64,000 bases of DNA from Acidobacterium sp. (lineage in GTDB: Bacteria; Acidobacteriota; Vicinamibacteria; Vicinamibacterales; UBA2999), in the NCBI GenBank assembly GCA_002737365.1, contig NSIL01000004.1, positions 128,019 through 192,018 of the forward strand. Direction: 5' to 3'. The translations under genes were made by a program, and so were the position numbers. Under the pieces are notes generated by a model that saw nothing but the letters and a program-made list of their open reading frames with translations, had not been told where the DNA came from and searched no databases. Of the stretch, positions 36,936 through 59,644 are shown piece by piece. The stretch's first letter is position 1, and each line of letters starts with the position of its first letter.

Positions 36936-37904
36936 CTATGCCTGCAAGTGGCAGGCACTGACGTGCCCGGCACCCACGGGCCGCAATGTGGGGACCTGTT
37001 CGGCGCACACCGCCACCGCCTGCGGGCAGCGGGTGCGGAAGACGCAGCCCGAAGGCGGCGTAATCTGGCTGGCCGGCTCACCCTTGAGGGCCAGACGGGT
37101 CCGCGGCCGGCCCGGTTCCGCCACCGGCACGGCCGAGAGCAGCGCCTGCGTGTAGGGGTGCGCCGGACGGCTGAACAGCGCGGTCTTCGGCGCCAGTTCC
37201 ATGACGCGTCCGAGGTAGATCACCGCCACATGGTCCGCGATGTGCTCCACCACCGCCAGGTCGTGTGCGATGAACAGCATCGTCAGGGCGTGCCGCTCCT
37301 TCAGGTCGCTGAGCAGGTTGATGACCTGCGCCTGGATCGAGACGTCGAGCGCCGAGACGGGTTCGTCGGCGACCAGGAATTCCGGCTGCACCGCCAGCGC
37401 CCGGGCGATGACCAGTCGCTGCCGCTGTCCGCCAGAGAACTCATGGGGGAAGCGCACGAGGTAGTCGGCCGGCAGGCCCACCTCGTCGAGCAGCGCGGCG
37501 GCGCGCGCTGTTCGATCGGCCCGGGTGCCGATCCGATGCAGCGCCAGCGCGTGCCGCAACATCGCGCCGACCGTCTCGCGCGGATTCAAGGCGGCGTAGG
37601 GGTCCTGGAAGACAATCTGCATGCGCTTGCGGGCGCGGCGCAGGTCGGGCTTCGCCAGGGCCAGCACGTCGACGCCGTCGAAGTGCACCGATCCCGCCGT
37701 GGCCGGTTCGAGCCGCAGTACGAGGCGGCCGACGGTGGTCTTGCCCGAGCCGCTTTCGCCGACCAGGCCCAGCACGTCACCGCGCTGGATCGAAAAGCTC
37801 ACGCCGTCGACCGCCTTCACGTGTCCGACGACCCGCTGCAGAAGGCCGCCGTGCAGAGGGAAGTGCTTGACCAGTCCGTCGACCCGCAGCAGCGCGTCGG
37901 TCAT
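36936..37904 (-). CDS. oligopeptide/dipeptide-type ABC transporter ATP-binding protein (OppF/DppF-like)
   Basis: ATG 37904 ([15 protein letters not shown]). Walker [10 protein letters not shown], signature FSGGQRQR, and a C-terminal oligopeptide-ABC extension (CVFRTRCP). ATGA overlap with the upstream gene. Confidence 0.92.
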
Positions 37905-38926
37905 GCGTGCGCCTCTGCCGAGAGAGCCAGGTCGCGCCAGCGCCCGCACCGAACGTCATGTCCGGGCCCGCTCGATTCGAGGGCCGGCGCGGTCGCCAGG
38001 CAAGCCGGCACCACGTGGCCGCAGCGATTGGAGAAGCGGCACCCAGGTGGCAGCAGCGCCAGCGTCGGCACCTGACCGGGAATGGCGGGCAGGCGGCCGC
38101 CGGCCCGGCCCAGGCGCGGCCTCGATGCGAGCAGTCCGGCGGTGTACGGCATGCGCGGGTTTGCGAACAGGTCCGCGACCTCACTCGACTCCACCACCTG
38201 ACCGGCGTACATCACGAGCACCCGGTCGGCAATGGAGGCGACGACGCTCAGGTCGTGGGTGATGAAGATGACGGCCATGCCGAGCTGGGCCTGGAGGTCC
38301 TCGATGAGATCCAGTATCTGGGCCTGGATCGTGACGTCGAGGGCCGTGGTCGGCTCGTCGGCGATCAGCACGCTCGGCTTACACGCCAGCGCCATGGCGA
38401 TCATCACGCGCTGACGCATGCCCCCGGACAGCTCGTGCGGAAAGCTCCCGGCCCGCCGCTGCGGCTCGGGAATGCCAACGAGCGCCAGCATGTCCACGGC
38501 ATGGGCCAGCGCCCGGTCGCGACTGAGGCCCTCGTGGCATTCGACGACCTCGGCGACCTGCGCGCCCACGGTATGGACCGGATTGAGGCTCGTCATCGGC
38601 TCCTGGAAGATCATGCCGACGTGGCGGCCGCGGACGTCGCGCATCTCGTCCTCGGACAGCGTCGTCAGCTCGCGGCCTGACAGGCGGATCGACCCGCCGG
38701 CGATGCGCCCGGTGCCGGCCGGCAGCAGGCGCATGATCGAGAGCGCCGTCACCGACTTACCCGATCCACTTTCGCCGACGATGGCCAGCGTTTCGCCGGC
38801 TCCGACCGAGAAGCTGACGCCGTCGACAGCGACGAGCGGACCGCCATTCCCGGACGCGAAGGTCGCGCGCAGATCGCGGACCTCGAGCAGCGGGGCCGTG
38901 GTGCTGGCCGGCACAGCGCCGCTCAC
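37901..38926 (-). CDS. oligopeptide/dipeptide-type ABC transporter ATP-binding protein (OppD/DppD-like)
   Basis: GTG 38926. Walker [10 protein letters not shown], signature LSGGMRQR, C-terminal CRFSNRC block. GTGA overlap with the upstream gene. Confidence 0.92.
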
Positions 38927-40347
38927 CGCCGTCCGAGCTCCTCGAGCGCCTGCGCAACACCGTCCAGGTGCGTGAGATGCATCGAGGCGTAGTTCGGGGC
39001 GAGGACCACACCGTGGCCGCCGGCACGATAGGTGGCGAGCACCGACCGCCGCACGATGTCGGTCGAACAGCGCGCGGTGTCCGGCCGCGTGCGAGGTGCA
39101 TCGACGCCCACACCCATGTAGACCTTCGCCCGACCCTCAACACCGCGCACCGCTTCAGCGCACTGCCCGAAGACATAGGTGTCGGGATCCATCCCGGCCG
39201 AGACCAGTTCCGCGAACGGGGCTTCGTTCAGGCCGAGGATGCGGAAGAGCGCGGCCGTGCTCTCATCGGGCGTGAAGTCGCGCAACACGGTCTTGCGCAG
39301 GAAGCCGAGCTCCTTATTCCAGACTTCGCCGGCCTGGTGCTGGTAGGTGATTGGCTTGACGAAGTCGGCGTAGCGGGTCTGCTCGGCCCACGGCCACTGT
39401 GCCCGGCGCAGCAGATTGAAGTGGTTGCGGTTCCACACGTTGAGGCCGAAGGGCAGCGTCGGCTTGCACCACTTCACCAAGCCGTAGAGCTCTCGGTCGA
39501 GGTCCTTGTTGCGCTCGAGCCAGAACTTCTCCCACACCAGTGCCTCGGGGTTCTCGAGCAGAACCCGCAGGAACGTGACCAAGGTACCGTCCACGAACGT
39601 CTTGCCGGCCGCCGCCTCCTGCATGAAGTCGTAGAGCCGCAGCAGCGCTTGGCGGCAGGCCTCGACGTTGACACCGCGCTCGCCGGCCTCTTGCCGCGCG
39701 GCCGGCGAGAAGTCGCCGGGCGCTCCGCCCTGAATCAACGTGTCGAGCGGCGAGTTGCGCTCGTTGCACCACATCACGCCGTCGATCGGGTGATTGCGCA
39801 CCTGGTCTTCGAGCATCGAGTGAATCCACGTGCGGTAGCCCGGGTGTGATGTCGACGGCTCGCTGCCGAAGCGGCCGAGCAGATCCACCTCCATGGCCTG
39901 GGCCAGTGTCGGCACCTCGACGGCGGCGGCCGAGCCGTGGCCGGCGTACTTGAAGAACGGCTCCATCAGCTCGATGTAGACCTGCATGCCGCGGGCGTGC
40001 GCGGCCGGCAGCACCATCTTCAGGATGTCCTTGCCCTCGAACTCGCGATCGCGACTGCGATAGTCGGCCATGAACGTGTCGCGGTAGTAGCGCGGGTCGG
40101 GATCGAAGTACGCGCCGCCGCGCATTTGATACGGCTTGGGCACGCCGTGATCGGGCCAGCCATCAAGCGCGTGGCTGATCGATCGTCCGCTCTTGAGGCC
40201 GAGCCAGCTGACAGTGCCCAGCATCAGCACGTTGACGCCGACGCGGTGCTGCAGCGTGTCGAGCACCGCCTCGACGCCCTCGTCCACGAAGCTGATTGGA
40301 CTGATCTGAATACCGACGAACTTGTCCTGCGGCAGGGGAGTGGTCAT
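38923..40347 (-). CDS. hypothetical protein (474 aa), no family recognised; possibly a TIM-barrel glycosidase-like fold
   Basis: ATG 40347 ([33 protein letters not shown]...) overlaps the TGA of the aminotransferase. It has a normal globular composition, unlike the Arg/Pro-rich upstream part of the 755-aa track ORF. The alternating beta/alpha-like pattern in the first ~300 aa is only suggestive. Confidence 0.7.
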
Positions 40348-41522
40348 GTGGTGGCTCTCGACTTGGTCGTGAAGCCGGCGATGCGGCTCATCGCTTCGCG
40401 GATGAGCGGCAGCGGCTGCAGATAGCTGATCCGGATGTAGTCGCGGCTGGTGTCGCCGAACATCGTACCCGGAAATACCATCACGCCGGTTTCGCGCAGC
40501 AGCCGCTCGCAGAAGTCGGGTGCGGCGAGGCCGGAAGAGGAAATGTTCGTGTAGATGTAGAAGGCGCCGCCGGGGTGTCCGTAGGTGAAACCGGCGGCGG
40601 TCAGTGCCGGCATCAGCCACGCCCGCCGGGCCGCGTAGTCGTCCAGCATCTGCTGCACCGGCTCCTGGGGGCCGGTCAGCGCGGCCAGCGCCGCATACTG
40701 GCTGATGGTGCAGGTGTTGATCGAGAGCGTGTGTCGCGGCTCTGTTACCTTGGCCACGAAATCGCCCGGGGCGGCGAGGTAGCCGACCCGCCAGCCGGTC
40801 ATCGCATAGGTCTTCGAGAAGCCGTTCAGCGTCACCGTGCGGTCGCGCATGCCGGGCAGCGTCGCAATCGACAGGTGCTGATTGGGCGCGTAGATCATGC
40901 GGGCATAGATCTCGTCGGCGACGATGAGCAGGTCGTGCTGCAGCGCCAGGTCGGCGATGGCGCGAATCACGGCCGGTGGTGTGACCGCTCCGGTCGGGTT
41001 GTTGGGCGTAGTCAGCACGAACATCCGCGTGCGCGGGCCGATGCGGGCGGCGATCTCGGCGACGTCGAGTGCGAAGTCGTCTTTCTCGTGGGTCGGCACC
41101 GGCACCGGGACGCCGCCGCACAGGCGCACCGCCGTGTCGTAGGTGGTGAAGCGCGGGCTGGTGATGAGCACCTCGTCGCCCGGCGTGCATAGGCCCAGCA
41201 TCGCGAGCATGATGCCTTCCTGCGCGCCGGCCGTCACCACGATCTCGTCGCTGCCGTAGTCGAGGCCGTGCGCGGCCTTCAGATCGGCGGCAATCGCGGC
41301 GCGCAGGGCCGGCAAGCCGGTGGGGCCGGTGTAGTGATGATGATTGGCGTCGATGGCCGCCTTGGCCGCCGCCACGATGTGCGCCGGGGTGTGGAAATCC
41401 GGATCGCCGCGGCCGAGCGCGATCACGTCCGTCATGCCGGCGGCGAGCGACAGCATGCGCATCCGGAACGCGCCGTCTTCCTCGACGATGCGCGGCGCGA
41501 GCCGCGAGGCGAGCAGACTCAC
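40344..41522 (-). CDS. class I/II PLP-dependent aminotransferase (AspC-like)
   Basis: 392 aa, GTG start overlapping the upstream stop. Blocks GRGDPDFHTP, NPNNPTG, and the PLP-lysine block FSKTYAMTGWRVGY. Confidence 0.9.
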   Translation of the reverse strand: MSLLASRLAPRIVEEDGAFRMRMLSLAAGMTDVIALGRGDPDFHTPAHIVAAAKAAIDANHHHYTGPTGLPALRAAIAADLKAAHGLDYGSDEIVVTAGAQEGIMLAMLGLCTPGDEVLITSPRFTTYDTAVRLCGGVPVPVPTHEKDDFALDVAEIAARIGPRTRMFVLTTPNNPTGAVTPPAVIRAIADLALQHDLLIVADEIYARMIYAPNQHLSIATLPGMRDRTVTLNGFSKTYAMTGWRVGYLAAPGDFVAKVTEPRHTLSINTCTISQYAALAALTGPQEPVQQMLDDYAARRAWLMPALTAAGFTYGHPGGAFYIYTNISSSGLAAPDFCERLLRETGVMVFPGTMFGDTSRDYIRISYLQPLPLIREAMSRIAGFTTKSRATT

Positions 41523-42745
41523 CCGTGCATCCTCTTGCCGGCGACGAAGGTCATGCGGATGCGATCGAGCGCGAAGAGATCCTGGTCGGGATTGCCGTCT
41601 ACCACGATCAGGTCAGCCGCCTTGCCGGCCTCGAGCGTGCCGATGATGGAGTCCATACGCGAGAGCCGCGCCGCCCGAATGGTGATCGAGGCGAGCGCGT
41701 CCATGGCGTCGGCGCACACGCCCACCTTCACCATGTGCGCGAGCTCGGGCGCGATGACGTCGTGTTCGACCGCGGGGCTGCCGGCATCGGTGCCGAAGAC
41801 GATCGATACGCCCGCCCTAGCGGCGCGCACCAGACCCTCGTAGCGGGCCGGATTGGCCACCGCCTTCTGCCGTTCCTCGATCTTCCAGTCGGGAATGCCG
41901 AACTTCTTTGCCACCTCGGGCTGGCTCTGCTGCACGAGAGGCGCGAAGGTCGTCACGATCGGAATCTTCTTTGCGAGGAGCAGGGCTACCGTCGACTCGG
42001 ACATCGAGCCGCCGTGCTCCACGCAGTCGACCCCGAAGCGGGCGACCCGTTCGATGCACGCATCGTAGGTGGCGTGAGCCGTGATCGGCAGGTTGTTGCG
42101 GTGCGCTTCGTCGATGACGGCGTGAAGTTCTTCATCGGTGAACTCCAGCGTGTCGTGACAGGCCATGATCTTGATGAGATCGGCCCCGCCGCGCACCTGC
42201 TCGCGCACGGCTCGCCGCATCTCGTCGGCGCCGCTCGCCTCGCGGCACACCCAGTAGGTGTGGCCGCCGGTCTGGATGATGGCCGCACCGCACACCTTCA
42301 CGCGCGGGCCGGGGAAGATGCCCTGCTCGATGGCCTGCTTCGAGTAGAGGTTCAGGTCGTGGAAGCCGAGGTCGCGGACCATCGTGACGCCGGCGCGCAG
42401 GCTCTTCAGCATGTTGGCCGCGGCCTTGAACACCGAGATCGGCCGCGGGTCGTCCATCGACTGGCGCGCCAGGTCGTGAATGCCGTCCCAGTTCAGGTGC
42501 GCGTGGCTGTTGATGAGGCCGGGCATGATCGTGCCGCCGGTCTCAATCACCGGGGCATCGCTGGCCGGCCGTGCTGCCCGCGCGCCGACCGCGACGATCT
42601 TGCCGGCCTTCAGCTCGACGAAGCCGTCCTCGATGAGCGGGCCGGCCATCGTCAGCACCCGGCCCGTCAGCACCAGGTGCGGCAGCGGCAGGTCGAACAT
42701 GGGCTTGGTGATCTTCTGGTAGCGCCAGGCGGCAGGCTCGGGCAT
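41519..42745 (-). CDS. amidohydrolase-superfamily metallohydrolase
   Basis: About 408 aa from ATG 42745 with GAAGGAG 7 nt upstream. HxH motif LINSHAHL, plus ...ADLIKIMA..., ...ITAHA..., ...VEHG..., ...FGTDAG.... Confidence 0.88.
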   Translation of the reverse strand: MPEPAAWRYQKITKPMFDLPLPHLVLTGRVLTMAGPLIEDGFVELKAGKIVAVGARAARPASDAPVIETGGTIMPGLINSHAHLNWDGIHDLARQSMDDPRPISVFKAAANMLKSLRAGVTMVRDLGFHDLNLYSKQAIEQGIFPGPRVKVCGAAIIQTGGHTYWVCREASGADEMRRAVREQVRGGADLIKIMACHDTLEFTDEELHAVIDEAHRNNLPITAHATYDACIERVARFGVDCVEHGGSMSESTVALLLAKKIPIVTTFAPLVQQSQPEVAKKFGIPDWKIEERQKAVANPARYEGLVRAARAGVSIVFGTDAGSPAVEHDVIAPELAHMVKVGVCADAMDALASITIRAARLSRMDSIIGTLEAGKAADLIVVDGNPDQDLFALDRIRMTFVAGKRMHG

Positions 42746-42764
42746 GGGAAAGGCTCCTTCGGAC

Positions 42765-43946
42765 TCAGAGGGGCAACACGCGCCGGTCGATCGGGTGCGT
42801 GGATTGAAAGCGGCTGGCAACCTCGACGGCGCCGTCGCCGACGATGAGCGTGTCGATGGTGCGCCAGCCGTCACGGGACGGGCGATAGACGCCCGGCTCG
42901 CACGAAAATACCATCCCGGCGGCCGCCGGGGTGTGGTCGCCGGGAGCCAGCCACGGCGCTTCGTGGCCCTCGACACCCATGCCGTGCCCGATGCGGTGGC
43001 GAATCACCTCGCCGAACCCGGCCGCGCGAATCGGCGCCAGCGCGGCGGCGTTGACCTCGGCACAGGTGCGCCCGCGCGCCAGCGCGTCGACGGTGGCGCG
43101 GTTCGCTTCGTCCATCGCTTGCATGACGGCGCGCTGCTCAAGGCTGATCGCGCCGCAGACCAGCGTGACGCCACTTTCGGCGTGATAGCCACCGAGGCTG
43201 CAGCCGATGCCGGCAATCACCGGCTCGCCGGCACGCGGGCGGCGGCCGAGGACGGCGCCGTGCGGCAGCGCGGCGCGCGGGCCGGAGTGCACCGATGCCG
43301 TGATGCCGACCTTCGTGCCCTGGAACGCGGCGCCGTGCGTGGCCACGAGGGCGGCGCGGGCGTGGCCGGTGCAGTCCGCCATCAGATCCAGCTCGGTGGC
43401 CCCCTGGCGGATGAGGTCGGCGCCAGCGGCGAGCAACCGTTCGAGGACGAGGTCGGCGAACCGTGCCGCTTCGCGGATAAGGGCGAGCTCGTCGTCGTGC
43501 TTCACCGCGCGTTCGGGGCGCACGTGGTCCGCTAGGTCGAGGTGAGTCAGGCGGGCCCGGGCGGCCTCGAGCAGACGCGCCTCGAGCGCGTCGATGCCGA
43601 GGCGCCGGGCGCCGGTCTCGCCGATCATCCACAACGCCGGCGGCACGTCGCCTGGGAACTCGTCGTAGGCCGTGACGGCCACGCCGGGCACGTCGCGCGC
43701 GTTCTCGAGCTCGAGGTGCGGCACGAGCAGTCGTGCTTCGCCGTCCACCGGTACCCACAGGCCCATCGGGCGTTCATTCACCGAGAAGTGCCAGCCCGTG
43801 GCGTAGGTCACGTTCCCGGCCGCCAGGACCAGCAGGCCGTCGAGGCCCGCCGCCGCGGCGCGTGCCCGCAGGCGATCGCGGACGGCGGCCCGGAGGGCCG
43901 GCGCTATCGGCGCCAGTGGCGCCCGGACCGGCGCGGCCGATGTCAC
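42765..43946 (-). CDS. M24-family metallopeptidase (Xaa-Pro dipeptidase / creatinase / ectoine-hydrolase-like)
   Basis: About 393 aa from GTG 43946 (GTGA overlap with the upstream stop). Pita-bread metal-ligand blocks ...VHSGPRAALPHG..., ...HRIGHGMGVEGHEAPWL..., ...MVFSCEPGVY.... Confidence 0.88.
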   Translation of the reverse strand: MTSAAPVRAPLAPIAPALRAAVRDRLRARAAAAGLDGLLVLAAGNVTYATGWHFSVNERPMGLWVPVDGEARLLVPHLELENARDVPGVAVTAYDEFPGDVPPALWMIGETGARRLGIDALEARLLEAARARLTHLDLADHVRPERAVKHDDELALIREAARFADLVLERLLAAGADLIRQGATELDLMADCTGHARAALVATHGAAFQGTKVGITASVHSGPRAALPHGAVLGRRPRAGEPVIAGIGCSLGGYHAESGVTLVCGAISLEQRAVMQAMDEANRATVDALARGRTCAEVNAAALAPIRAAGFGEVIRHRIGHGMGVEGHEAPWLAPGDHTPAAAGMVFSCEPGVYRPSRDGWRTIDTLIVGDGAVEVASRFQSTHPIDRRVLPL

Positions 43947-45022
43947 AGTCGCGCCTCGCGCCACGGCCCGACGACGCTGAGCGTCTCGGCCACGCCGAGC
44001 TCGAGGCCGAGCGCCGTGAGATCGGTGAGCACGTCGTTGTCGAGCGGCACACCCACGGCGAGCTTGGTGGCCACGCGCCGGGCCTCCTGCTCGCCGGGCA
44101 GCAGCACTTCCTCGACGCCGGGGCGCAGCGCCCGCGACTTCACCATCCGCGCGAAATCGTCCATCCGCCGCTTGAACTCGGCCAGCGGCATGAACCACTC
44201 GATGTCGATGGCGGTGAGTGTGTGGCTCACATCCAGCTTGCCTGGGTCGGCGTAGGGCGTGAGACCGTAGCCGCCTCCGCCGATGACGCCGGTGAGCACG
44301 TCGGTCATGAACGCGAGGCCGTAGCCCTTGTAGGTGCCGATGCCGAGCAGCGCGCCGGTCATGGCCGCATTCGGGTCATTGGTCTCGTGTCCGTCGGGCG
44401 TGAGCGCCCAGTCGAGCGGCATCGGCCGGCCCTCGCGTGCGTGCCACTGCATCATGCCCTTGCCAGCGGTTGTGAGCGCGATGTCGAGCACCGCCGGAAA
44501 GCCGAGGCCCGTCGGGGCGGCGATGCCCCAGGGGTTGGTGCCGACCGCGCCCTCGTGCGCGCCCCACGGCGCCATCTCGGGTCCGGCGTTGGTGAAGGCG
44601 ATGCCCAGGCAGCCCGCATCGGAGGCCTGACAGGCGTGCACGGCACTCGACCCGAAGTGGGTCGAGTTGCGAACGACCACCTGGCCGATGCCGCAGACCT
44701 TCGCCTTGGCGACGGCAAGCGTCATCGCCCGAGCCGCGGCCACGGTGCCGATGCCGTTGTGCGCATCGACCAGGGCCAGGGCCGGACTCTCCTTGACGAT
44801 TTCCCACGGCGCTCGCGGATCGACCTGCCGGCTGCTGAGACGCTGCTGATAGCGGCGCAGCCGGCGCACACCCTGGCCGTGGCCGGGATGAAAGCGGAGC
44901 TCTGAGAAGACCAACGCGCGGCCGAAGATGCTGGCGTCCTCATCGGGCAGGCCGAGGGCGCGGAAGACCGCGATCGTGAACGCTTCGAGGCTGTCGCGGG
45001 TGACGGACGTGAGTGAAATCAT
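43943..45022 (-). CDS. Ldh_2-family (malate/L-lactate/ureidoglycolate dehydrogenase; Pyr2C/Pip2C reductase family) oxidoreductase
   Basis: 359 aa. Family blocks ...HNGIGTVAA..., ...VRNSTHFG..., ...AFTNAGP.MAPWG...GTNPW..AAP.... First gene of the minus-strand operon. Confidence 0.88.
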   Translation of the reverse strand: MISLTSVTRDSLEAFTIAVFRALGLPDEDASIFGRALVFSELRFHPGHGQGVRRLRRYQQRLSSRQVDPRAPWEIVKESPALALVDAHNGIGTVAAARAMTLAVAKAKVCGIGQVVVRNSTHFGSSAVHACQASDAGCLGIAFTNAGPEMAPWGAHEGAVGTNPWGIAAPTGLGFPAVLDIALTTAGKGMMQWHAREGRPMPLDWALTPDGHETNDPNAAMTGALLGIGTYKGYGLAFMTDVLTGVIGGGGYGLTPYADPGKLDVSHTLTAIDIEWFMPLAEFKRRMDDFARMVKSRALRPGVEEVLLPGEQEARRVATKLAVGVPLDNDVLTDLTALGLELGVAETLSVVGPWREARL

Positions 45023-45389
45023 TGGCTACCGGAGTGACGCCGGCACCACACACAGCCGGCCGCCGTCACAACGCTCTCTAGAATACACGGGCCAGCGCGC
45101 CGACGACCGCCGCGCCGCTCTGTAGTCAGCCCATCTCCCGCCGCCCGCAAATGCAGGAAATGCGACACGCGTGCGTCGCACCTACGTCGAGATTGCTTCG
45201 GCGCAACTGCAGGTCACGACAATGCCGCACGCGGATTCACCGCCGCCTTCGGCACGCGACCTGCCGTAGTCCGCGACGGTGACCCTGCCGTCGGTCGACT
45301 CGCCCGGCGAGACCTAGCGGCGGACCTGTTGAATCGTGTGGTACGCGGGCACAATTTACTCATGGTGGTGAGTCAATCATACTCGTGCA

Positions 45390-45638
45390 ATAAGTAAGCG
45401 GCTGCAAGTCCTCCTAGACGAGGCTGAATGTCTCGAACTGCAGCAGGTGGCCGGCCGACGTCGCATGACGGTGGCCGCGTGGGTGCGTGAGACGTTGCGG
45501 GCGGTACGGCAGCGCGAGCCAGTCGGGGACGTGGCGGCCAAGCTTGCTGCGGTGCGAGCGGCTGGCCGGCACGCCTTTCCGACAGCCGACACGGTGGATG
45601 ACATGAATGCTGAGATCCAGCGTGGCTACCTCGCATGA
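45390..45638 (+). pseudogene. ribbon-helix-helix (CopG/VapB-like) antitoxin gene with apparently lost start codon
   Basis: In-frame reading after the TGA at 45369 gives (ATA)[41 protein letters not shown].... The RHH strand-helix region lies upstream of the first usable start (GTG 45447). There is no ATG/GTG/TTG between 45372 and 45446. The ATA at 45390 sits where an ATG would be expected. Confidence 0.55.
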
Positions 45639-46033: not shown

Positions 46034-46120
46034 CGAAGCCGTAGCGGACGATCTTGGAGGCCGCGCCGGTCCTGCAGTGGATGGGGCCACCGCCCCCGCT
46101 ATAGGCCGTCGCGAGATCGG

Positions 46121-47874: not shown

Positions 47875-47904
47875 GCGTCCTCTCGCGTTTGGCGCGCAAG
47901 CCGG

Positions 47905-47932
47905 TTGGCTTGTCGCCGGTCGACAATATACA
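47905..47932 (+). promoter_or_regulatory. candidate sigma70-like promoter of the 15-gene plus-strand operon
   Basis: TTGGCT (47905-10), 16-nt spacer, TATACA (47927-32), 34 nt upstream of ATG 47966. It overlaps the only AT-rich patch (ACAATATACACTGT, partly palindromic) in the divergent spacer. Confidence 0.3.
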
Positions 47933-47965
47933 CTGTTCGCCGCTGGTGCCGCCGCCAATCGCGCG

Positions 47966-49513: not shown

Positions 49514-49518
49514 CCCCA

Positions 49519-51167: not shown

Positions 51168-52162
51168 TGATGCCTGCCGCCAAGACCGTCACTGTCGGTT
51201 CCGCCACTGCCGCGCCGGGCACCGTTGTTCGCGGCGCCATTCCGGTCACGACACTCGCCGGTGGCACGCCGCTCGAGATTCCCGTCGTCGTCATCAGCGG
51301 CGCCCAGGGCGGGCCCTGTTTCTGGGTCGATGGCGCGATTCACGGCGACGAGCCCGAGGGCCCACTGGCGTGCCAGATCGCGATGCGCGAGATCGATCCG
51401 GCGCAGCTCTCAGGTACGGTCGTGCTGGTGCCGGTCATGAACGTGCCGGCGTTCGAGGCCGCGCAGCGCGGCAACCCGCTCGATACCTTCAGCTACGACA
51501 TGAACCGGATCTATCCGGGACGGGCGAACGGCTACCTCACCGAACGGATGGCGGCGGCGCACGCCGCGGCCATGACCGCCACCGCCGATTTCGAGATCTC
51601 GATCCATTCGGGCGGCGCGCATTCGTTCCTCGACAAGGCGATCTTCGTCGACGAATCGCCAGCCTCGGTGGAGCTGGCGACAGCGATGGGGCCCGGCTGG
51701 GGCTGCATCATGTCGTCGTTCAATCCGAAGGGAAGTCCCATGGCCCACATGAAGGACTCGGGCAAGGTGGGAATCACCGTGGAACTGGGCGGGCGGTCGG
51801 CGACCTCGCCAAAGGAATTCGCGCGGGTGGGGCGCGAACTGGCGAATTCGATTCTGAATATCGTGCGGCACTACAAGATGTATCCCGGCGCGGCGGCCTA
51901 CCCCTCACCGCGTTACAAGGGGCAGCAAGAGGCGCTCTTGGCGGCGGCGTCGGGCCTGTTCCTGCCGGCGCCCGGCGTCGGCTTCCTGACGATGATGAAA
52001 AAGGGCGACGCCATCGCCCGCATCACGAACATCTTCGGCGACACGCTGGCCGAGCTCAGTGCGCCCGCCGACGGCATGATCTTCGGTCTGCGTGCCCTGC
52101 CGAACGTGACGACAGGCGAATGGTGCTGCTTCTACTGCAAGGTGGAAGGGACGCGGGACTAG
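51167..52162 (+). CDS. succinylglutamate desuccinylase/aspartoacylase (AstE/AspA, M14-like) family deacylase
   Basis: 331 aa, start overlaps the upstream stop (TGATG). Zinc-site block AIHGDEPEG, plus NRIYPG and ISIHSGG blocks. Confidence 0.8.
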   Translation: MMPAAKTVTVGSATAAPGTVVRGAIPVTTLAGGTPLEIPVVVISGAQGGPCFWVDGAIHGDEPEGPLACQIAMREIDPAQLSGTVVLVPVMNVPAFEAAQRGNPLDTFSYDMNRIYPGRANGYLTERMAAAHAAAMTATADFEISIHSGGAHSFLDKAIFVDESPASVELATAMGPGWGCIMSSFNPKGSPMAHMKDSGKVGITVELGGRSATSPKEFARVGRELANSILNIVRHYKMYPGAAAYPSPRYKGQQEALLAAASGLFLPAPGVGFLTMMKKGDAIARITNIFGDTLAELSAPADGMIFGLRALPNVTTGEWCCFYCKVEGTRD

Positions 52163-52169
52163 GACGGCT

Positions 52170-53093
52170 GTGACCAACAACGCGGCATCGGCGCGCGACT
52201 TCGTAGGCTACGGCGAGACGCCGCCCGATGTCTGCTGGCCGGGCGGCGCGCGCCTGGCCGTGAACATCGTCCTCAATTACGAAGAGGGTTCCGAGTACTC
52301 GATCGGGGATGGTGACGGCTGCTCCGATGCCACACTCACGGAAGTCGCGCAAGCGCGGGTGCCGCAGGGGCTGCGTGACCTGGCGGCCGAGAGCATGTTC
52401 GAGTACGGCAGCCGCGTCGGATTCTGGCGGATCTATCGGCTGTTTCGCGAACGCCGGCTGCCGCTCACGGTGTTCGCGGCGGCGCTGGCGCTCGAGCGCA
52501 ATCCCGCGGCGGCGCGCGCCATCGCGGCCACCGACTGGGATGTCGTGTGCCACGGCTGGCGCTGGATCGAGCAGTACCTGCTCGACGAGGCGACCGAGCG
52601 CGACCACATCGCCCGCGCGCATAACGCCGTCACGCGGCTCATCGGCCGGGCTCCCGAGGGCTGGTATTGCCGCTATGCGCCGTCGCCGCACACCCGCCGA
52701 CTGGTGGTCGAGCACGGCGGCTTTGGCTACGACAGCGACGCCTACAACGACGAACTGCCGTACTGGGTGACGGTGGCCGGCCGCCCGCACCTGGTGGTGC
52801 CGTATTCGCTGGTGACCAACGATGCCAAGCTCGTTGGCGGACCGCTCGTGACCGGCCGCGTGTTCGGTGAGTTCCTCATCGACAGCTTCGAGGAACTGCT
52901 GGCCGAGTCACGGCACCAGCCGCGGATGATGTCGGTGGGTCTGCACGCACGGGTCATCGGCCAGCCGGGACGGATTGGCGGATTGCGGGCCTTTCTCGAC
53001 CACATCGAGGGGCGCCCCGGCGCGTGGCTGTGCCGGCGCGGCGACATCGCTGCCCACTGGCGCACGCAGGTGCCGCCTGGAGCGTCCCGGTGA
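52170..53093 (+). CDS. puuE: PuuE-type allantoinase-like polysaccharide-deacetylase-family hydrolase
   Basis: 307 aa, GTG start. Collinear with my memory of PuuE: NYEEG.E, EYGSRVGFWRI, LPLTVFA, HGWRW, EGWY, FGYDSDAYNDELPYW, PHLVVPYSL.TND, MSVGLHARV.GQPGR. Confidence 0.7.
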   Translation: MTNNAASARDFVGYGETPPDVCWPGGARLAVNIVLNYEEGSEYSIGDGDGCSDATLTEVAQARVPQGLRDLAAESMFEYGSRVGFWRIYRLFRERRLPLTVFAAALALERNPAAARAIAATDWDVVCHGWRWIEQYLLDEATERDHIARAHNAVTRLIGRAPEGWYCRYAPSPHTRRLVVEHGGFGYDSDAYNDELPYWVTVAGRPHLVVPYSLVTNDAKLVGGPLVTGRVFGEFLIDSFEELLAESRHQPRMMSVGLHARVIGQPGRIGGLRAFLDHIEGRPGAWLCRRGDIAAHWRTQVPPGASR

Positions 53094-53590
53094 GGCTGCC
53101 GCTGCTGGCCCCGGACGTGGCGCTGTTCGCCCCCTTCGGCGAGTTCATCGACGTGCCCGCGCAGGTCGGCCTTCGGCGGATGTACAGCCAATGGCTGGCG
53201 CCCGTGGCGGGTCTGGCGCTGCAGTTCCACACCAACCGGGTCGCGGCCTCCACCCTGCCCTTGCGTGTCGATCGGGTCGAGCGCCATCCCCACGCCGCGC
53301 AGCTATTCCTGCCGCTCGTGGCCTCGCAGTACGTCGTGACCGTGATGGCGGCCGACGCGGCCGGGGCGCCCGATCCGGCCTCGGCGCACGCGTTCCTGCT
53401 GCCGCCCACCATCGGGGTCGTCTACCGGACCGGTGTCTGGCATGCCGGCATGACGGCACTCGATACGGAAGGGAGTTTTGCCGTGATGATGTGGCGCGGC
53501 GCCGCGGACGATGACGTCTTCGCCGCCATTCCGTCGGTAGTCGTCGACGCACCGGCAGCCGTTGCCTCGTCAGGAGGCAGGTATGGCTAG
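53090..53590 (+). CDS. allA: ureidoglycolate lyase (AllA) family protein
   Basis: About 166 aa from GTG 53090 (GTGA overlap). Family pattern ...F.PFGEFI......ERHP.A.Q.F.PL......V.V......P....AF....G..Y..GVWH......F.V.... Confidence 0.6.
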   Translation: MRLPLLAPDVALFAPFGEFIDVPAQVGLRRMYSQWLAPVAGLALQFHTNRVAASTLPLRVDRVERHPHAAQLFLPLVASQYVVTVMAADAAGAPDPASAHAFLLPPTIGVVYRTGVWHAGMTALDTEGSFAVMMWRGAADDDVFAAIPSVVVDAPAAVASSGGRYG

Positions 53591-54263
53591 CCATCCGTTC
53601 GCCACCACGCTCGCGCCGATCGAGCAGACGCCGCTCAAGGTGCAGATCGCCGACCAGTTGCGGCGTGCCATCGTGACCGGGCGGCTGCGCCCGGGCGCGG
53701 CGCTCGTCGAAACCGCGCTCGCCGAGCAGCTCAACGTCAGCCGGGCGCCGATTCGCGAAGCGGTGCAGATTCTCGAGAACGATGGCCTAGTCGAAACCGT
53801 GGCCTACAAGGGCAAGCGCGTCAAGCCGCTCACGGTGCGCGAGGTCGTCGAAACCTGCGAGATGCGCACGGTGTTCGAGGTCACGGCCGCGCGGCGTCTG
53901 CTCGCGCACGGCACGGCGGTCGACACGTTGTGGCAGCCCTGCCGCGTGATGGAGGAGGCCGCCGCCGCCGGCGACCGCGAGGCGCTGGTCGTGGCCGACG
54001 AGGCGTTCCACCGGCGGCTCATCGAGCTCTCCGGTCATGCGCTCCTGACCCAATTCTGGGCCGGCCTCTATCTGCGGATCCATCAGATCATGTCGCTGCG
54101 CAACGACCGCGACGTAAACCTAGTCGACATCGCCGCCAACCATCCGCCGATCGTCCGCGCGCTCGCCGCGGGGGACGGCGCACTGGCGGAACAGCTGATC
54201 GCCGCACATACCCACGCGCTGGCCAGTTTCGATCCGGCCAGCGTCGCGGAGTCCCTGACATGA
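53583..54263 (+). CDS. GntR-family transcriptional regulator (FadR/FCD subfamily)
   Basis: About 226 aa from ATG 53583. Winged-HTH block QIADQLRRAIVTGRLRPGAALVETALAEQLNVSRAPIREAVQILENDGLV, followed by an all-helical FCD-like C-terminal domain. Confidence 0.88.
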   Translation: MASHPFATTLAPIEQTPLKVQIADQLRRAIVTGRLRPGAALVETALAEQLNVSRAPIREAVQILENDGLVETVAYKGKRVKPLTVREVVETCEMRTVFEVTAARRLLAHGTAVDTLWQPCRVMEEAAAAGDREALVVADEAFHRRLIELSGHALLTQFWAGLYLRIHQIMSLRNDRDVNLVDIAANHPPIVRALAAGDGALAEQLIAAHTHALASFDPASVAESLT

Positions 54264-55177
54264 GGGAGCCACAGACCGTGCTCATCACCGGCGCCGGCGG
54301 GTTTGTCGGCAGCGCCCTGGCCGAGGGCTTCGCGGCGCTCGGCTGGCGTGTGATGGCCGTCGACCGGGCGTTCGACGAGGCGACCGGCCAGCGCCTGGCT
54401 GGCTGCGATTTGGTCACGGCAGAGCTCGGCGATATCGTGCCGGGCGACCTGCCGACCGCGGCGCTGGTGATTCACGCCGCGGCCATCACGACCCCAGCCG
54501 CCGATCTCGGCTGGACGCCGGCGGCCCATGTGGCGGCCAACACCAGGCCGCTCGTCTCGATGCTCGAATACGCGGCTCGCACGCGTCCGGCGGCCTTCGT
54601 GTTCGTGAGTTCGAGCGGCGTCTTTGCCGCAGGCGATGGCCACACCGAGCTGACCGACGCCGACCTGCCGACCGGCCATTCACCCTATGCCTCCGCCAAG
54701 CGCGCTGGGGAATTGCTGACGGTGGCGGCACTTGAAGGCCTGGCGGCGGCGCACGTGATTCGCTTGGGCTACCTGTATGGGCCGCACGAGACCGCGCGGC
54801 CGAGCCGGTCACGCACCTCGGCCGTGGCCCGCTGGCTGGCGGCAGCACGCGACGGGCAGCCGCTCGTAGTGCCATCCGATGACCCGCTTCGCGACTGGAC
54901 TTTCACCCCCGACCTGGCGCCGGTACTGGCGCGGCTGGCTGCGCTGCCGCCCGCCGGGCGGCCGGTGCATCTCTGCAGCCCCCACATGCTGAGGGACAGC
55001 GCCATGGCCGGCGGCATTGCCGCGCTTGTCCCAGGCGCCAAGTGCGTGACGGAGCCGGCCGCCGTGCCGGCGAAGCCGCCGATGCGCGCGTCGGATTTGT
55101 CGCGCCTGGGCGCCGTACGGTGGACCGCCCCAGACGCGGCGCTGGCGCGCCTGGTCGGCACGGAGGTCACGGCATGA
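54260..55177 (+). CDS. NAD-dependent epimerase/dehydratase-family (extended SDR) protein
   Basis: 305 aa from ATG 54260 (ATGA overlap). Rossmann motif ITGAGGFVGSAL and catalytic YASAK. Confidence 0.82.
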   Translation: MREPQTVLITGAGGFVGSALAEGFAALGWRVMAVDRAFDEATGQRLAGCDLVTAELGDIVPGDLPTAALVIHAAAITTPAADLGWTPAAHVAANTRPLVSMLEYAARTRPAAFVFVSSSGVFAAGDGHTELTDADLPTGHSPYASAKRAGELLTVAALEGLAAAHVIRLGYLYGPHETARPSRSRTSAVARWLAAARDGQPLVVPSDDPLRDWTFTPDLAPVLARLAALPPAGRPVHLCSPHMLRDSAMAGGIAALVPGAKCVTEPAAVPAKPPMRASDLSRLGAVRWTAPDAALARLVGTEVTA

Positions 55178-56211
55178 GCGTCGTGCGCGTCATCCTCGTC
55201 GGGCTGGGCGCCCGGGCCCGCATCTGGCGGCGCGTTGTGGCGGCGCGTCCCGACTGCCGGATCGTCGGTCTCGTCGACCAACGCGTAGACGCTGTGATGG
55301 CCGCGGTGGCCGAGACGGCCGGCGCCGTCGGCGGCGCGACGCTCGCCGAGGTCACGGCGCGCGTGGCGGCCGACGCCGTCATCCTCAGCACGCCGCCCGG
55401 CGGCCGTGACGACCAGATCGCCGCGGCATGCGCCGCCGGGCTCGCGATCCTGGCGGAGAAGCCGCTGGCCGACAGCGTCGAGGCCGCCGAGGCGCATGTG
55501 GCGACGGCCGCGCGCGCCGGCGTGTCGCTCGCCGTCGGGCTGAACTTCCGTTACCTGGCCGTGACCCGGGCACTCAAGGCCCTGCTCACGCCCGAGCAGA
55601 TGGGCCGTCCCGAGTTTGCGCACTTCACCTACGAACGCTGGCGCGATGGACGGCTGCCGCATCTGAATAAGTACCCGCTCACGATGGATCACCCGATGCT
55701 CTGGGAGCAGTCGATCCATCATTTCGATCTGATGCGTTTTGTCTACGATGCCGAGCCGACCACGATTTCGGCCCGCACGTTCAACCCGTCGTGGTCAATG
55801 TATCGCGGCGACGCCAACGTCTCAGCGCTCATCATCTTCACGGGCGGGCTCGAAGTGACGTATCAAGGTACGTGGGCGGGTAACTGGCAGCCCATGACGT
55901 TCAACTGGCGCACCGAAACGCCCCACGGCGTCGTCATCCAGGCCGACATGTTCGGCGCGCTCGGCTATGCGCGCCGTGATGACGCGGCCCTGACGCCAGT
56001 CACCCTGCCCGCCGTCGAACCGTGGGTGGACGACGCGGCGGCGCTCTTCGACGACTTCGCTGCCCACGTCCGTGACGGGGCGCCGCTGCCGTGCCCCGGC
56101 ACCGACCACGTGCGTTCCCTGCGCATGGTGGCGGCCTGCATCGAGTCATCGATGACCGGCCGCGCCGTCGATCCCCGTGTCCCAGGACTGCAAAGGACGA
56201 GCCCCTCATGA
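55174..56211 (+). CDS. Gfo/Idh/MocA-family oxidoreductase
   Basis: 345 aa from ATG 55174 (ATGA overlap). N-terminal Rossmann VRVILVGLGARA and the EKP motif (LAEKPLA). Confidence 0.82.
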   Translation: MSVVRVILVGLGARARIWRRVVAARPDCRIVGLVDQRVDAVMAAVAETAGAVGGATLAEVTARVAADAVILSTPPGGRDDQIAAACAAGLAILAEKPLADSVEAAEAHVATAARAGVSLAVGLNFRYLAVTRALKALLTPEQMGRPEFAHFTYERWRDGRLPHLNKYPLTMDHPMLWEQSIHHFDLMRFVYDAEPTTISARTFNPSWSMYRGDANVSALIIFTGGLEVTYQGTWAGNWQPMTFNWRTETPHGVVIQADMFGALGYARRDDAALTPVTLPAVEPWVDDAAALFDDFAAHVRDGAPLPCPGTDHVRSLRMVAACIESSMTGRAVDPRVPGLQRTSPS

Positions 56212-57773
56212 AACTGCGCTACCTCGCGGCCCTCGCCGCCGGCCTTGCCATTGTCGGTGCGGCGGTGATGATGATTCGGACCGGACCGCGTGCCGCCAGC
56301 ACGATCGTCGTCGGCCTGAGCGCCGACGTCGCCACCTTCGAGCCGGCCAACATCTCAAGCCGCGACAACATGAACATCGCGCACCACATCTTCGCGTCGC
56401 TGTTCACGCTGGATATGGACGGCCAGCATCGGCCCAATCTGGCGCGCGAGCTGGCCATCTCCGAGGACGGGCTGGCCTATACCTACACCTTGCGTGAGGG
56501 CCTGACCTGCCACGACGGTGAGGCGCTCACGGCCGAAGACGTCGCCTACACCTTCGCCCGCATCGCCAATCCGGCCAACAAGTTCACCGGCAACGCGCCT
56601 GGTTTCGTCTTCAGCTCGATTGGCTTCCGCAGCGCCGAGGCGCTCGACCCACAGCGCGTGCGCATCACGATCGCCCAGAAGCACCCCATCGCCTTCGGCC
56701 TGCTGACCGAGATCAGCATCCACTGCAAGGACAGCTACGAGAGGATGAGCCCCGACCAGGCGGCGACGTCGCCGATTGGCTCCGGTCCGTATCGGCTGGC
56801 GTCCTGGTCGCGTGGGGCCGAGGTCGTCCTCGAGAAAGCGGGGGAATCCGCGGTCGCTTTCGACCGTATCGTCTGGCGGATCATTCCCGAGGCCTCCACC
56901 CGCGCCGCCGAGCTGATGGCCGGCAACGTCGATATCATCGCCAACGTGGCGCCGGATCAGGTCGCCGCCATCAACCAGTCGGGCGTCGCGGCCGTGCAGT
57001 CGGTGACGAGTACCCGCCGCATGTTCATCGGCTTCAACCAGGCCGAGCAGTTTGGCAAGACGCCCGGCGGGCGGGCGATTCGCGATCCGCGGGTGCGACG
57101 CGCCCTGCAGTACGCGGTCGACGTCCCGACGATCTGCCGGCAGTTGCTGCAGGTCGAGTGTCAACGAGCCACCGGCCTCGTCAACGCGGTCAACGCCAAC
57201 AAGGCCCTGTCGCCCTATCCCTTCGAGCCGGCCACGGCCGAGCGGCTGCTCGATGAGGCCGGCTGGCCCCGCGTCGACGGGAAGATGCGCTTCGCGCTGA
57301 CGCTGCAGGCCGGCCGCGGCCGGTACCTGAACGATGTCAACGTCGTGCAGGCCATCGGCCAGTACCTGCGTGATGCCGGTGTCGACGTGACGGTCGAATT
57401 GCTGGACTGGGCCAGCGTCTTTCAGCCGCTCCTGCGCACGCGCACCGCCGGGCCGCTCTTCTTCATGGGCACCGGCGGCGGTCTGTGGAGCCCCATCTAC
57501 GACATGAACGATCTGGCGCGCGTGGACTCCGGCACCAACTACCCGAACTGGTCCGACCCACGCTGGTTCTCGCGCTGGGATGCCCTCACCGATGCCGCCA
57601 CGCCCGACGACACCCGCCGCATCGTCGACGAGATGCTGCAGGTCTTCTACGACGACGGCCCGTGGCTGCACTTGTACTTCCAGCCCGACTTCTACGGCGT
57701 GTCTTCACGCGTCGAATGGAAGGCCCGGCCCGATGAGCGGATCTACGCGTTCGACGCGAGGCCCAAGGGCTGA
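56208..57773 (+). CDS. ABC transporter substrate-binding protein, family 5 (peptide/opine/nickel type)
   Basis: 521 aa from ATG 56208 (ATGA overlap). Signal/anchor sequence present. Typical SBP_bac_5 blocks (LA.....DG..YTF.LR.G...HDG..LTAEDV.YTF). Confidence 0.88.
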   Translation: MKLRYLAALAAGLAIVGAAVMMIRTGPRAASTIVVGLSADVATFEPANISSRDNMNIAHHIFASLFTLDMDGQHRPNLARELAISEDGLAYTYTLREGLTCHDGEALTAEDVAYTFARIANPANKFTGNAPGFVFSSIGFRSAEALDPQRVRITIAQKHPIAFGLLTEISIHCKDSYERMSPDQAATSPIGSGPYRLASWSRGAEVVLEKAGESAVAFDRIVWRIIPEASTRAAELMAGNVDIIANVAPDQVAAINQSGVAAVQSVTSTRRMFIGFNQAEQFGKTPGGRAIRDPRVRRALQYAVDVPTICRQLLQVECQRATGLVNAVNANKALSPYPFEPATAERLLDEAGWPRVDGKMRFALTLQAGRGRYLNDVNVVQAIGQYLRDAGVDVTVELLDWASVFQPLLRTRTAGPLFFMGTGGGLWSPIYDMNDLARVDSGTNYPNWSDPRWFSRWDALTDAATPDDTRRIVDEMLQVFYDDGPWLHLYFQPDFYGVSSRVEWKARPDERIYAFDARPKG

Positions 57774-58762
57774 TGGGCATCCTGGTCGCGCGCCGGTTGC
57801 TGCAGAGCGTCGTCGTCATCCTTGGCGTCACGCTCATCAGCTTCATCGCCCTCCATGCCGGGGGCGATCCGACCTACCTGTTCGTCAGCGAGCGGGCGAC
57901 CACCGAGGAGATCGCGCTTGTTCGCCAGGCGCTCGGATTCGATCGGCCGCTGCATGTGCAGTACCTGAGCTTCGTGGCCGACCTAGCCCGCGGCGACTTC
58001 GGCACCTCGCTCTCGTACCGCCAGCCGGCGCTCGACATCGTGCTTGCCGCCTTTCCGGCGACGATCGAGCTGGCGGTGTTCGCCTTCGCGATCGCCATCG
58101 TCGTGGCCATTCCGCTCGGCGTCGTCGCCGCCCTCAACCGCGGTACGGCCGTGGACGGCTCGATTACGATGCTCGGGCTGCTGGGGCAGTCGATTCCGAA
58201 TTTCTGGATGGGGATCATGCTGATCCTCTTCTTCGGGCTCAACCTGCGCTGGTTTCCGATCTCCGGCCACGTGCCGTTCCTCGTGCCACTGCTGAACGGC
58301 GACCTCGCCACGGCACTGGGCAACCTGCCGCGCACCCTCTATTTCCTCGTCATGCCGGGCGTGGCGGTGGCCACCTATTCGCTGGCCCGCAATACCCGGC
58401 TCGTGCGCTCGTCGATGCTCGAGGTGCTGGGACAGGACTACGTGCGCACGGCGCGCGCCAAGGGCCTGTCCGAGCAGGTCGTAGTGGTGCACCACGCGCT
58501 GCGCAACGCCTGGCTTCCGGTGGTGACGATGATCGGCCTCGAGTTCGGCTTCCTGCTGGGCGGCGTCGTCGTGACCGAGACCGTCTTCAGCTACCCGGGC
58601 ATCGGGCGGCTGCTGTTCAATGCGATCAACCAGCGCGACATTCCGGTCGTGCAGGCCGGCGTCATCCTACTGGCCGGCAACTTCATTCTGCTGAACACGG
58701 CAGTCGATCTCGTGTACGCCCGGCTCGATCCGCGCGTGTCGCTGACCCGGGGGCGGCGATGA
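57773..58762 (+). CDS. ABC transporter permease (DppB/OppB-like)
   Basis: 329 aa, TGATG overlap with the SBP gene. N-terminus ILVARRLLQSVVVILGVTLISF and the EAA-loop region YVRTARAKGLSE. Confidence 0.9.
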   Translation: MGILVARRLLQSVVVILGVTLISFIALHAGGDPTYLFVSERATTEEIALVRQALGFDRPLHVQYLSFVADLARGDFGTSLSYRQPALDIVLAAFPATIELAVFAFAIAIVVAIPLGVVAALNRGTAVDGSITMLGLLGQSIPNFWMGIMLILFFGLNLRWFPISGHVPFLVPLLNGDLATALGNLPRTLYFLVMPGVAVATYSLARNTRLVRSSMLEVLGQDYVRTARAKGLSEQVVVVHHALRNAWLPVVTMIGLEFGFLLGGVVVTETVFSYPGIGRLLFNAINQRDIPVVQAGVILLAGNFILLNTAVDLVYARLDPRVSLTRGRR

Positions 58763-59634
58763 GCCTGCGGCCAGACCCACGGCGGGCGTGGCGCAGCATG
58801 GTGAGGGCGAGATGGCCGCTGCTGGCGGTGGCCATTCTGGCCGTCGTGGTTGTGGTGGCGGCCTTCGGCCCTTGGCTGGCGCCGCTCGATCCGGAGCGTC
58901 AGAGCATCGTGTCGCGACTGTCGCCGCCGGGCACGACGGGCCCGCAGGGGATCACGCACTGGCTCGGGTCCGACGTGCTCGGCCGCGACGTGTTGTCGCG
59001 CCTGCTCTACGGCGCGCGCATCTCGTTGCTGGTCGGGCTGGCGGCGATTATGGTCGGCGGGACACTGGGGACGTTGGCGGGTCTCGTCTCCGGCTACTTC
59101 GGCGGCTGGATCGACGACCTGACGATGCGGCTCTGCGACATGCAGTTGGCGTTTCCGTTCGTGCTCCTGGCGATCATGTTCCTGGTGGTGCTGGGCCCGG
59201 GGGTCGGCAACCTCGTGCTAGTCCTCGGCATCGGCCAGTGGGTCACCTACGCCCGGATCGTCCGCGCCGAGACGCTGTCGCTGCGCGAGAAGGAGTTCGT
59301 CGAAGCGGCCCGCGCGCTGGGCGACCGCACCGCGACCATTCTGTTCCGCACGATTCTGCCGAACACCATCGCCCCGCTGACCGTCATTGCCTCGTTCAAC
59401 GTGGCGAGCGTGATACTCACCGAGGCGGCGTTGTCGTTTCTCGGCCTGGGCGTGCCGGCGTCGGTGCCGACCTGGGGCAGCATGCTGGCCGAGAGCCGCG
59501 ATACGCTGCTGGCGAACAAGTGGTGGCTCGCCGTGTTTCCTGGCGTCGCGATCATGCTGACCGTGCTCAGTTTCAACATCATCGGGGATTGGCTGCGGGA
59601 CGCCCTGGATCCGCGGCTGCGGGAGCGACAGTGA
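58759..59634 (+). CDS. ABC transporter permease (DppC/OppC-like)
   Basis: 291 aa from ATG 58759 (ATGA overlap). Blocks HWLGSDVLGRDVLSRLLYGARISL and EFVEAARALG (EAA loop). Confidence 0.9.
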   Translation: MSLRPDPRRAWRSMVRARWPLLAVAILAVVVVVAAFGPWLAPLDPERQSIVSRLSPPGTTGPQGITHWLGSDVLGRDVLSRLLYGARISLLVGLAAIMVGGTLGTLAGLVSGYFGGWIDDLTMRLCDMQLAFPFVLLAIMFLVVLGPGVGNLVLVLGIGQWVTYARIVRAETLSLREKEFVEAARALGDRTATILFRTILPNTIAPLTVIASFNVASVILTEAALSFLGLGVPASVPTWGSMLAESRDTLLANKWWLAVFPGVAIMLTVLSFNIIGDWLRDALDPRLRERQ

Positions 59635-59644
59635 GACAGCGAGA

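Follow-up and report, generated by a model that had tools for sequence, protein, structure and literature searches.

The window analysed here is a 64,000-nucleotide stretch of an Acidobacterium sp. genome (order Vicinamibacterales; G000:C34:128019-192018), and forms the end of a 192 kb contig in a genome of 3.05 Mb with a G+C content of about 67%. It carries five genes that very probably encode one ATP-binding cassette (ABC) importer of the PepT family (Opp/Dpp type), divided between two strands. A pair of OppD/OppF-type ATPase genes (36936..38926, minus strand) has no permease or solute-binding protein (SBP) gene beside it, and a family-5 SBP gene with DppB/DppC-type permease genes (56208..59634, plus strand) has no ATPase gene beside it. 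An initial annotation, made from the letters alone, had described both sets and proposed that their operons supply the halves of a single transporter. Pfam searches confirm both sets, for the ATPases together with motif searches. The proposal itself is supported by a shared layout in 20 of 20 genomes, by joint absence in 30 of 30 relatives, by elimination in a complete chromosome and by adjacency of the two sets in a rearranged cluster. That the five products assemble into one importer is suggested by co-location, co-occurrence and elimination, and above all because the same split layout is kept in a catabolic cluster across four phyla.

Gene identities come from Pfam and NCBIfam profile searches, and the gene map also draws on a plot of G+C content at third codon positions (GC3) by frame. 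The OppD/DppD-type ATPase (D, 37901..38926, minus strand) and the OppF/DppF-type ATPase (F, 36936..37949, minus strand) each comprise an ABC_tran domain and an oligo_HPY extension. Their best NCBIfam matches are OppD/DppD models for D and DppF/OppF models for F, in both cases under the equivalog cut-offs. Walker A, Q-loop, signature and Walker B motifs are present in both proteins according to a pattern search, which also finds the H-loop of D (ITHD); that of F (FIAHDL) was read from the sequence. Four C-terminal cysteines occur in each ATPase. The GTG start codon of D overlaps the stop codon of the gene upstream, and F likely starts at the ATG at 37904, which overlaps the stop codon of D.

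On the plus strand, the SBP gene (56208..57773, within a maximal frame from 56091) matches SBP_bac_5 with E=1.4e-68 and a score of 232 bits, where the cut-off is 32.4. It starts with an ATG that overlaps the stop codon of an oxidoreductase gene upstream, and the product has a hydrophobic leader at the N-terminus. The DppB/OppB-type permease (permB, 57773..58762) contains BPD_transp_1 and BPD_transp_1_N, and the DppC/OppC-type permease (permC, 58759..59634), whose ATG overlaps the permB stop codon, contains OppC_N and BPD_transp_1. The EAA loops that had been read from the letters, DYVRTARAKGLSE in permB and EFVEAARALG in permC, are both present. The part list of a PepT system (TC 3.A.1.5) is complete: a family-5 SBP, B and C permeases with EAA loops, and two oligo_HPY ATPases with intact motifs.

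None of the subunits meets an NCBIfam equivalog cut-off for OppABCDF, DppABCDF, GsiABCD, NikABCDE or CntABCDF. ATPase F scores 337 bits against DppF (cut-off 660), ATPase D scores 343 bits against the DppD-type dipeptide ABC transporter ATP-binding protein NF008246 (cut-off 541), and the SBP scores 122 bits against GsiB (cut-off 594). Because no such cut-off is reached, the specificity appears to differ from those of Opp, Dpp, Gsi, Nik and Cnt.

The two sets are separated by 17.3 kb (38926 to 56208). By Pfam, no permease or SBP flanks the ATPases, whose neighbours are a 474-aa protein that belongs to no family (UNK474), an aminotransferase and a DUF819 protein. Similarly, no ATPase was detected by Pfam downstream of the permeases, where a GFO/IDH/MocA oxidoreductase and an M20 peptidase are found. 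Three open reading frames (ORFs) or groups of ORFs that might have held a missing component were rejected. ORFs of fitting size on the minus strand at 45-49 kb, considered as a hidden permease or SBP, proved to be a pair of DUF4438 genes and, opposite the M32 gene, a spurious ORF. A 640-aa ORF after the permeases, considered as a fused ATPase, is the M20 peptidase by Pfam. A 755-aa ORF upstream of the ATPases, considered as a membrane component, is coding in its last 474 codons only, and its product is soluble.

The initial annotation placed the two operons 17 kb apart, which is right, and it understated the link between them. The ATPase set and the SBP/permease set are the distal parts of two divergent operons that make up one cluster of about 27 kb (35.8-62.8 kb), which has a single regulator and a single operator-like site. 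From 47874 down to 35796, the minus arm encodes two DUF4438 proteins, then after a 1.1 kb insert an Ldh_2-family dehydrogenase, an M24 hydrolase, an amidohydrolase, an aminotransferase, UNK474, ATPase D, ATPase F and the DUF819 protein. From 47966 to 62782, the plus arm encodes an M32 carboxypeptidase, an aminotransferase, a deacylase, a PuuE-like hydrolase, a cupin, a GntR regulator, a short-chain dehydrogenase/reductase (SDR) that is epimerase-like, a GFO/IDH/MocA oxidoreductase, the SBP, permB, permC, a second GFO/IDH/MocA oxidoreductase and the M20 peptidase. Start and stop codons overlap by 4 bases at many junctions, among them aminotransferase/UNK474, UNK474/D, D/F, first GFO/SBP and permB/permC.

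The arms meet head to head at an intergenic region of 91 bp (47875..47965), within which an operator-like inverted repeat, TTGTCGCCGGTCGACAAT, is located at 47908..47925. In other genomes, the junction between the first DUF4438 gene and the M32 gene contains the palindrome (A/G)TTGTCGACAAT, a 12-mer that is found at two or fewer mismatches in 38 of 46 loci, and GTCGACAA occurs in 44 of 47 junction sequences (the 46 loci and the window). The exact consensus 12-mer is absent from the window, and the TTGTCGCCGGTCGACAAT variant is conserved in acidobacterial relatives (L021, L023, L028). The elements of a GntR-controlled divergent pair are both present: the cluster encodes a GntR protein, and the junction has a conserved palindrome, the predicted operator. 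A consensus scan for sigma-70 promoters and terminators gave nothing above chance.

These features suggest a model in which D, F, the SBP, permB and permC would be the five subunits of an importer that serves the 27-kb catabolic cluster. Both operons would start from the shared 91-bp region, and the operator-like repeat is most likely bound by the GntR protein of the plus arm, so that one signal might switch on both arms. The plus arm would then supply the receptor in the periplasm and the channel through the membrane. The minus arm would supply a heterodimeric ATPase motor whose translation is tightly coupled to that of the enzymes.

Conservation of the layout was examined with UNK474 as the query, which has 203 relatives in the genome collection; loci were compared for the best 80 of these. 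The best 80 relatives are 73-97% identical and belong to Acidobacteriota, Gemmatimonadota, Alphaproteobacteria (Rhodobacterales, Devosia, Rhizobium, Neorhizobium and Aureimonas) and one metagenome-assembled genome (MAG) of Limisphaerales. Nearly all of these 80 loci keep the order DUF4438a-DUF4438b-Ldh2-M24-amidohydrolase-aminotransferase-UNK474-D-F, divergent from M32-aminotransferase. In each of the 20 cluster genomes searched for it, the other arm holds a permB orthologue, 14-33 kb and mostly 17-20 kb from UNK474, with an identity of 70-98% versus at most 51% for the next paralogue. The plus arms that were fetched continue with GntR-epimerase-GFO-SBP-permB-permC-GFO and sometimes M20, the SBP gene being present once or twice, and in those of other cluster genomes no Opp-type ATPase is found behind permC.

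The two halves are also missing together. Orthologues of window D and permB are both absent from all 30 genomes of the same genus or order, where the best matches are at most 61% and 46% identical, respectively. The window ATPases and permeases are therefore accessory, and their absences coincide. Across 17 genomes, the identity of the D and F ATPases (DF pair) to the window genes co-varies with that of the B and C permeases (BC pair) with r=0.97, which fits transfer as one unit.

Two genomes bear directly on which ATPases belong to which permeases. The complete chromosome of a Longimicrobiales bacterium (G032) contains two DF pairs, two BC pairs and no more of either. One set forms a contiguous SBP-B-C-D-F operon and the other is the split cluster; elimination matches the split halves to each other one to one. 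In a Rhodobacteraceae MAG (G051, L098), UNK474 is not followed by D and F. Their orthologues, at 65-68% identity, are on the same 41 kb contig, about 400 bp from an SBP-permB-permC-GntR-SBP2 group and divergently transcribed from it. Rearrangement of this cluster put the ATPase genes beside the permease genes. Three copies of the 12-mer palindrome are present in the 40 kb read of G051, each in an intergenic, promoter-like region: at the enzyme-arm junction, in the new intergenic region between D/F and the SBP gene, and upstream of the GntR gene. At the usual site of D and F in this genome (L123/L124, C350:1-40000), glmS and glmU follow a hydantoinase-like gene.

A further arrangement is found in G028, a member of the same order (L121/L018, C1:5051000-5063400). 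A paralogous cluster there, whose products are 43-57% identical to the window proteins, has all genes on one strand in the order SBP-B-C-UNK-like-x-amidohydrolase-aminotransferase-GFO-x-D-F, and may represent an ancestral or alternative layout.

The initial annotation had named cognate partners beside homologous sets elsewhere in the genome as a reason to discard the pairing, and a genome-wide search found no such partners. The inventory comprises two OppDF-type ATPase pairs (window; C16:33744-35590), three Opp-type permease pairs (window; C53:46716-48436; C34:6126-8014, the last referred to as C34a) and three family-5 SBPs (window; C2:26689-28203; C34:4350-6119). No permease pair adjoins an ATPase pair anywhere in the genome, and none of these loci is at a contig end. 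The split is a habit of the whole genome and is not peculiar to the window.

Several points weigh against assigning the five genes to one importer. Because every Opp-type set in the genome is split, complementary absence alone proves little; the absences on which the initial annotation relied are real, and they make a weaker argument than it supposed. Any genes that move together as a cluster would be expected to show a correlation such as r=0.97. The window DF pair and the C16 pair are about equidistant from the DF pairs of outgroup operons. The C16-type pair is general-purpose in relatives by elimination, so cross-energising with the window permeases is possible. With regard to regulation, the operator of Acidobacteriota is a diverged form of the palindrome. 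In addition, the 1.1 kb insert lies between the shared promoter region and the genes that include the ATPases, and transcription of the ATPases from that region is less certain than elsewhere. Read-through of the insert is plausible, because its ORFs point in the same direction.

The ATPases might instead be an energiser that is shared, in the manner of MsmX or MsiK, and that also powers the permeases at C34:6126-8014, C53:46716-48436 or both. The genome has three BC pairs for two DF pairs, none of them adjacent, and elimination points to sharing in the genus: G010 and G011, which are 100% complete, each have one DF pair, of C16 type, for two to three permease pairs on other contigs. Because it is the sole DF pair in these genomes, the C16-type pair would be the shared energiser in relatives, by elimination. 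A C16-type pair is found in nearly all of the 30 relatives, for example at 92% identity in G011. However, the same observations make sharing of the window pair unlikely. Relatives that lack the cluster run C34a-type and C53-type permeases on the C16-type pair alone, so that the window pair is not needed for these, and the window pair is gained or lost only together with the cluster and travels with one permease set. This supports a division of labour: the C16 pair would power the permeases of the C53 and C34a types, and the cluster would come with a pair of its own. In G022, an operon with an SBP and a permease resembling those of C34a has a DF pair that is 61/58% identical to the window DF pair versus 59/52% to the C16 pair, but these differences are too small to carry weight. 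For the same reason, assignment of partners by similarity to the DF pairs of complete operons was abandoned: the ATPase sequences are too uniformly related for partners to be assigned by a tree. The F subunit of the C16 pair has a truncated oligo_HPY extension and lacks the four C-terminal cysteines that are present in window D, window F and C16 D.

It is improbable that the window permeases are powered by the housekeeping pair at C16:33744-35590 and that the cluster ATPases have a regulatory role or act with the DUF819 protein. C16-type pairs multitask in relatives by elimination, and the DUF819 gene directly follows F in the window. However, DUF819 is not an ABC membrane domain, and outside Acidobacteriota it is not in the cluster, whereas the DF pair always is. 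Moreover, the only other DF pair of G032 sits in its own complete operon, the DF pair of G051 has moved to the SBP-BC genes, and both window ATPases carry oligo_HPY, which is typical of importer partners. That the two sets are unrelated neighbours is hardly credible: dispersal of all Opp-type sets in the genome makes complementary absence uninformative, but all 20 genomes tested, from four phyla, show the same neighbourhood, and the halves are jointly absent from 30 of 30 relatives.

A single importer whose genes are permanently in two halves is part of a broader picture, which is put forward tentatively and with slightly less than even confidence. According to this picture, the 27-kb region would be an undescribed island that has been passed among at least four phyla and that handles a nutrient resembling a glyco-amino acid or glycopeptide, and the host would run two to three other Opp-type permease pairs from one unlinked OppDF pair. 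The enzymes that mark the island would be the DUF4438 heteropair and the glycoside-hydrolase-like barrel without a Pfam family, both from families that lack a function. Literature searches on the cluster, on DUF4438, on TM1086 and on shared Opp ATPases turned up no account of this cluster.

The enzyme mix points to a nitrogen-rich conjugate of a sugar and an amino acid or peptide as the probable cargo: it includes peptidases, amidohydrolases, two aminotransferases, a glycosidase-like barrel and three sugar-type oxidoreductases. No cluster enzyme reaches an NCBIfam equivalog cut-off. The SBP is remote from solved binding proteins, with GsiB/YliB as its best match at 2e-31. Comparison with solved structures places it equally far from peptide, nickel, glutathione and opine binders, and gives no clue to the ligand.

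The barrel is a prediction for UNK474 (38923..40347, minus strand), which matches no Pfam or NCBIfam family and is coding according to the GC3 frame plot. The protein is 75-97% identical across Acidobacteriota, Gemmatimonadota, Alphaproteobacteria and Limisphaerales and has an invariant MWCNER motif. An AF2 model (pLDDT 79, pTM 0.83) has a predicted (beta/alpha)8 barrel of the glycoside-hydrolase type. Foldseek matches it, at fold level and with a query TM of about 0.47-0.5, to Cwp19, to the C-terminal (glycosidase) domain of PgaB and to GH42/GH35 enzymes.

Tandem DUF4438 paralogues always head the ATPase-bearing arm, and in the window they are its first genes (46121..47008 and 47005..47874, minus strand; Pfam DUF4438 and DUF4438_C). 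The only solved relative is TM1086 of Thermotoga (3n99, 3dcl), which is uncharacterised, and the literature search on DUF4438 and TM1086 returned no publication that mentions the family.

The closest described systems by composition are oppABCDF, dppABCDF and gsiABCD of E. coli (PepT, TC 3.A.1.5), which have the same five types of part, EAA loops, the oligo_HPY extension and the cysteine motifs. In contrast to these operons, the genes of the window are not contiguous. The ATPase genes are on the opposite strand, 17 kb off and behind nine enzyme genes, and different phyla keep this split.

For ATPase genes that lie apart from permease genes, the closest precedent on record is provided by MsmX of B. 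subtilis and MsmK of S. pneumoniae, ATPases of sugar importers that are encoded away from the permeases (PMC7658222). The window shares this separation, and elimination suggests that in this genus one unlinked ATPase unit serves several permease pairs. However, MsmX and MsmK are single homodimeric ATPases of the MalK type that belong to CUT1 systems and are encoded at unrelated loci, whereas the present ATPases are a heterodimeric OppD/OppF pair. Also, the window pair and its permeases belong to one regulated cluster, and the pair looks dedicated to them, not shared.

PepT-family uptake systems are also part of catabolic clusters for opines or conjugates, for example in Agrobacterium, where AccA-E act on agrocinopine and AgaA on agropinic acid. 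Like these clusters, the window has a PepT-family importer among catabolic enzymes together with a local regulator. Similarity of the window SBP to AccA and AgaA is distant (E about 1e-19) and no closer than that to peptide, nickel and glutathione binders. For the enzyme set, with its DUF4438 pair, glycoside-hydrolase-like barrel, M32, M24 and M20 peptidases and PuuE-like hydrolase, the literature searches found no matching opine pathway.

In automated annotations and transporter inventories, each half would count as an incomplete system, and what is probably a working importer would go unnoticed. If the pairing is correct, ATPase genes of the PepT family can stay apart from their permease genes over long evolutionary periods. 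Members of Vicinamibacterales probably run several importers from one OppDF pair, a habit documented so far mainly for sugar importers. If so, no multitask ATPase unit of the heterodimeric kind would have been described for the PepT family before the C16-type pair. The division of the genes is in itself only mildly surprising; the more useful leads are the cluster, which is conserved and uncharacterised, and the OppDF pair of the host lineage that apparently multitasks. With four phyla, one regulator, one predicted operator and two protein families that lack a function, the cluster is a well-defined target for pathway discovery, and it is present in cultivable strains of Devosia, Rhizobium, Neorhizobium and Aureimonas.

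The remaining genes of the minus arm were assigned by Pfam. Upstream of UNK474 are genes for a class I/II aminotransferase (40344..41522), an amidohydrolase (41519..42976 as the maximal ORF), an M24 hydrolase (about 42765..43946) and the Ldh_2-family dehydrogenase (43943..45022), all on the minus strand. Comparison of gaps shows the 1.1 kb insert (45023..46120) between the second DUF4438 gene and the Ldh_2 gene to be particular to this genome: in six other genomes the corresponding gap measures 6-43 bp, and in the closest relative 147 bp. The ORFs of the insert are small, are on the minus strand and match no Pfam family. The last gene of the arm encodes the DUF819 membrane protein (35796..36932, minus strand; Pfam DUF819, E=4e-54). 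It follows F in L021 and is located elsewhere in L113, and is linked to the cluster in the versions from Acidobacteriota only.

The plus-arm genes that precede the transporter (47966..56211, plus strand) were assigned by Pfam and NCBIfam and encode the M32 carboxypeptidase, an aminotransferase, an AstE/AspA-type deacylase, a PuuE-like CE4 hydrolase, a cupin that resembles ureidoglycolate lyase, the GntR regulator, the epimerase-like SDR protein and a GFO/IDH/MocA oxidoreductase. These genes keep their order in 20 genomes. The GntR-family regulator is PhnR-like (E=2e-30), and its gene starts at 53562 or 53583 and ends at 54263. After permC, Pfam identifies the second GFO/IDH/MocA oxidoreductase (59645..60727, plus strand) and, at the end of the arm, the long M20 peptidase (60860..62782, plus strand).

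Versions of the cluster differ in several details. Those of Alphaproteobacteria and Limisphaerales (L086, L050 and L040, about 11420-12820) have an extra gene between UNK474 and D, which encodes an amidohydrolase of about 465 aa that resembles hydantoinase or dihydroorotase. Two tandem SBP genes are found in the versions of Rhizobiales and Devosia. In Rhodobacterales, Roseitalea and Limisphaerales loci (L107, L118, L108), two ABC nucleotide-binding domains lie about 1.9 kb apart and about 1 kb past the M20 gene; these are about 30% identical to OppD/F and have the appearance of an exporter-like heterodimer. In some loci of this type, a further family-5 SBP follows, which is 43-49% identical to the window SBP. 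Finally, in L025, L100 and L105, which come from MFD long-read MAGs, the coding sequences of many cluster genes, D, F and permC among them, are split over several frames, and the broken frames most likely reflect assembly indel errors rather than pseudogenes.

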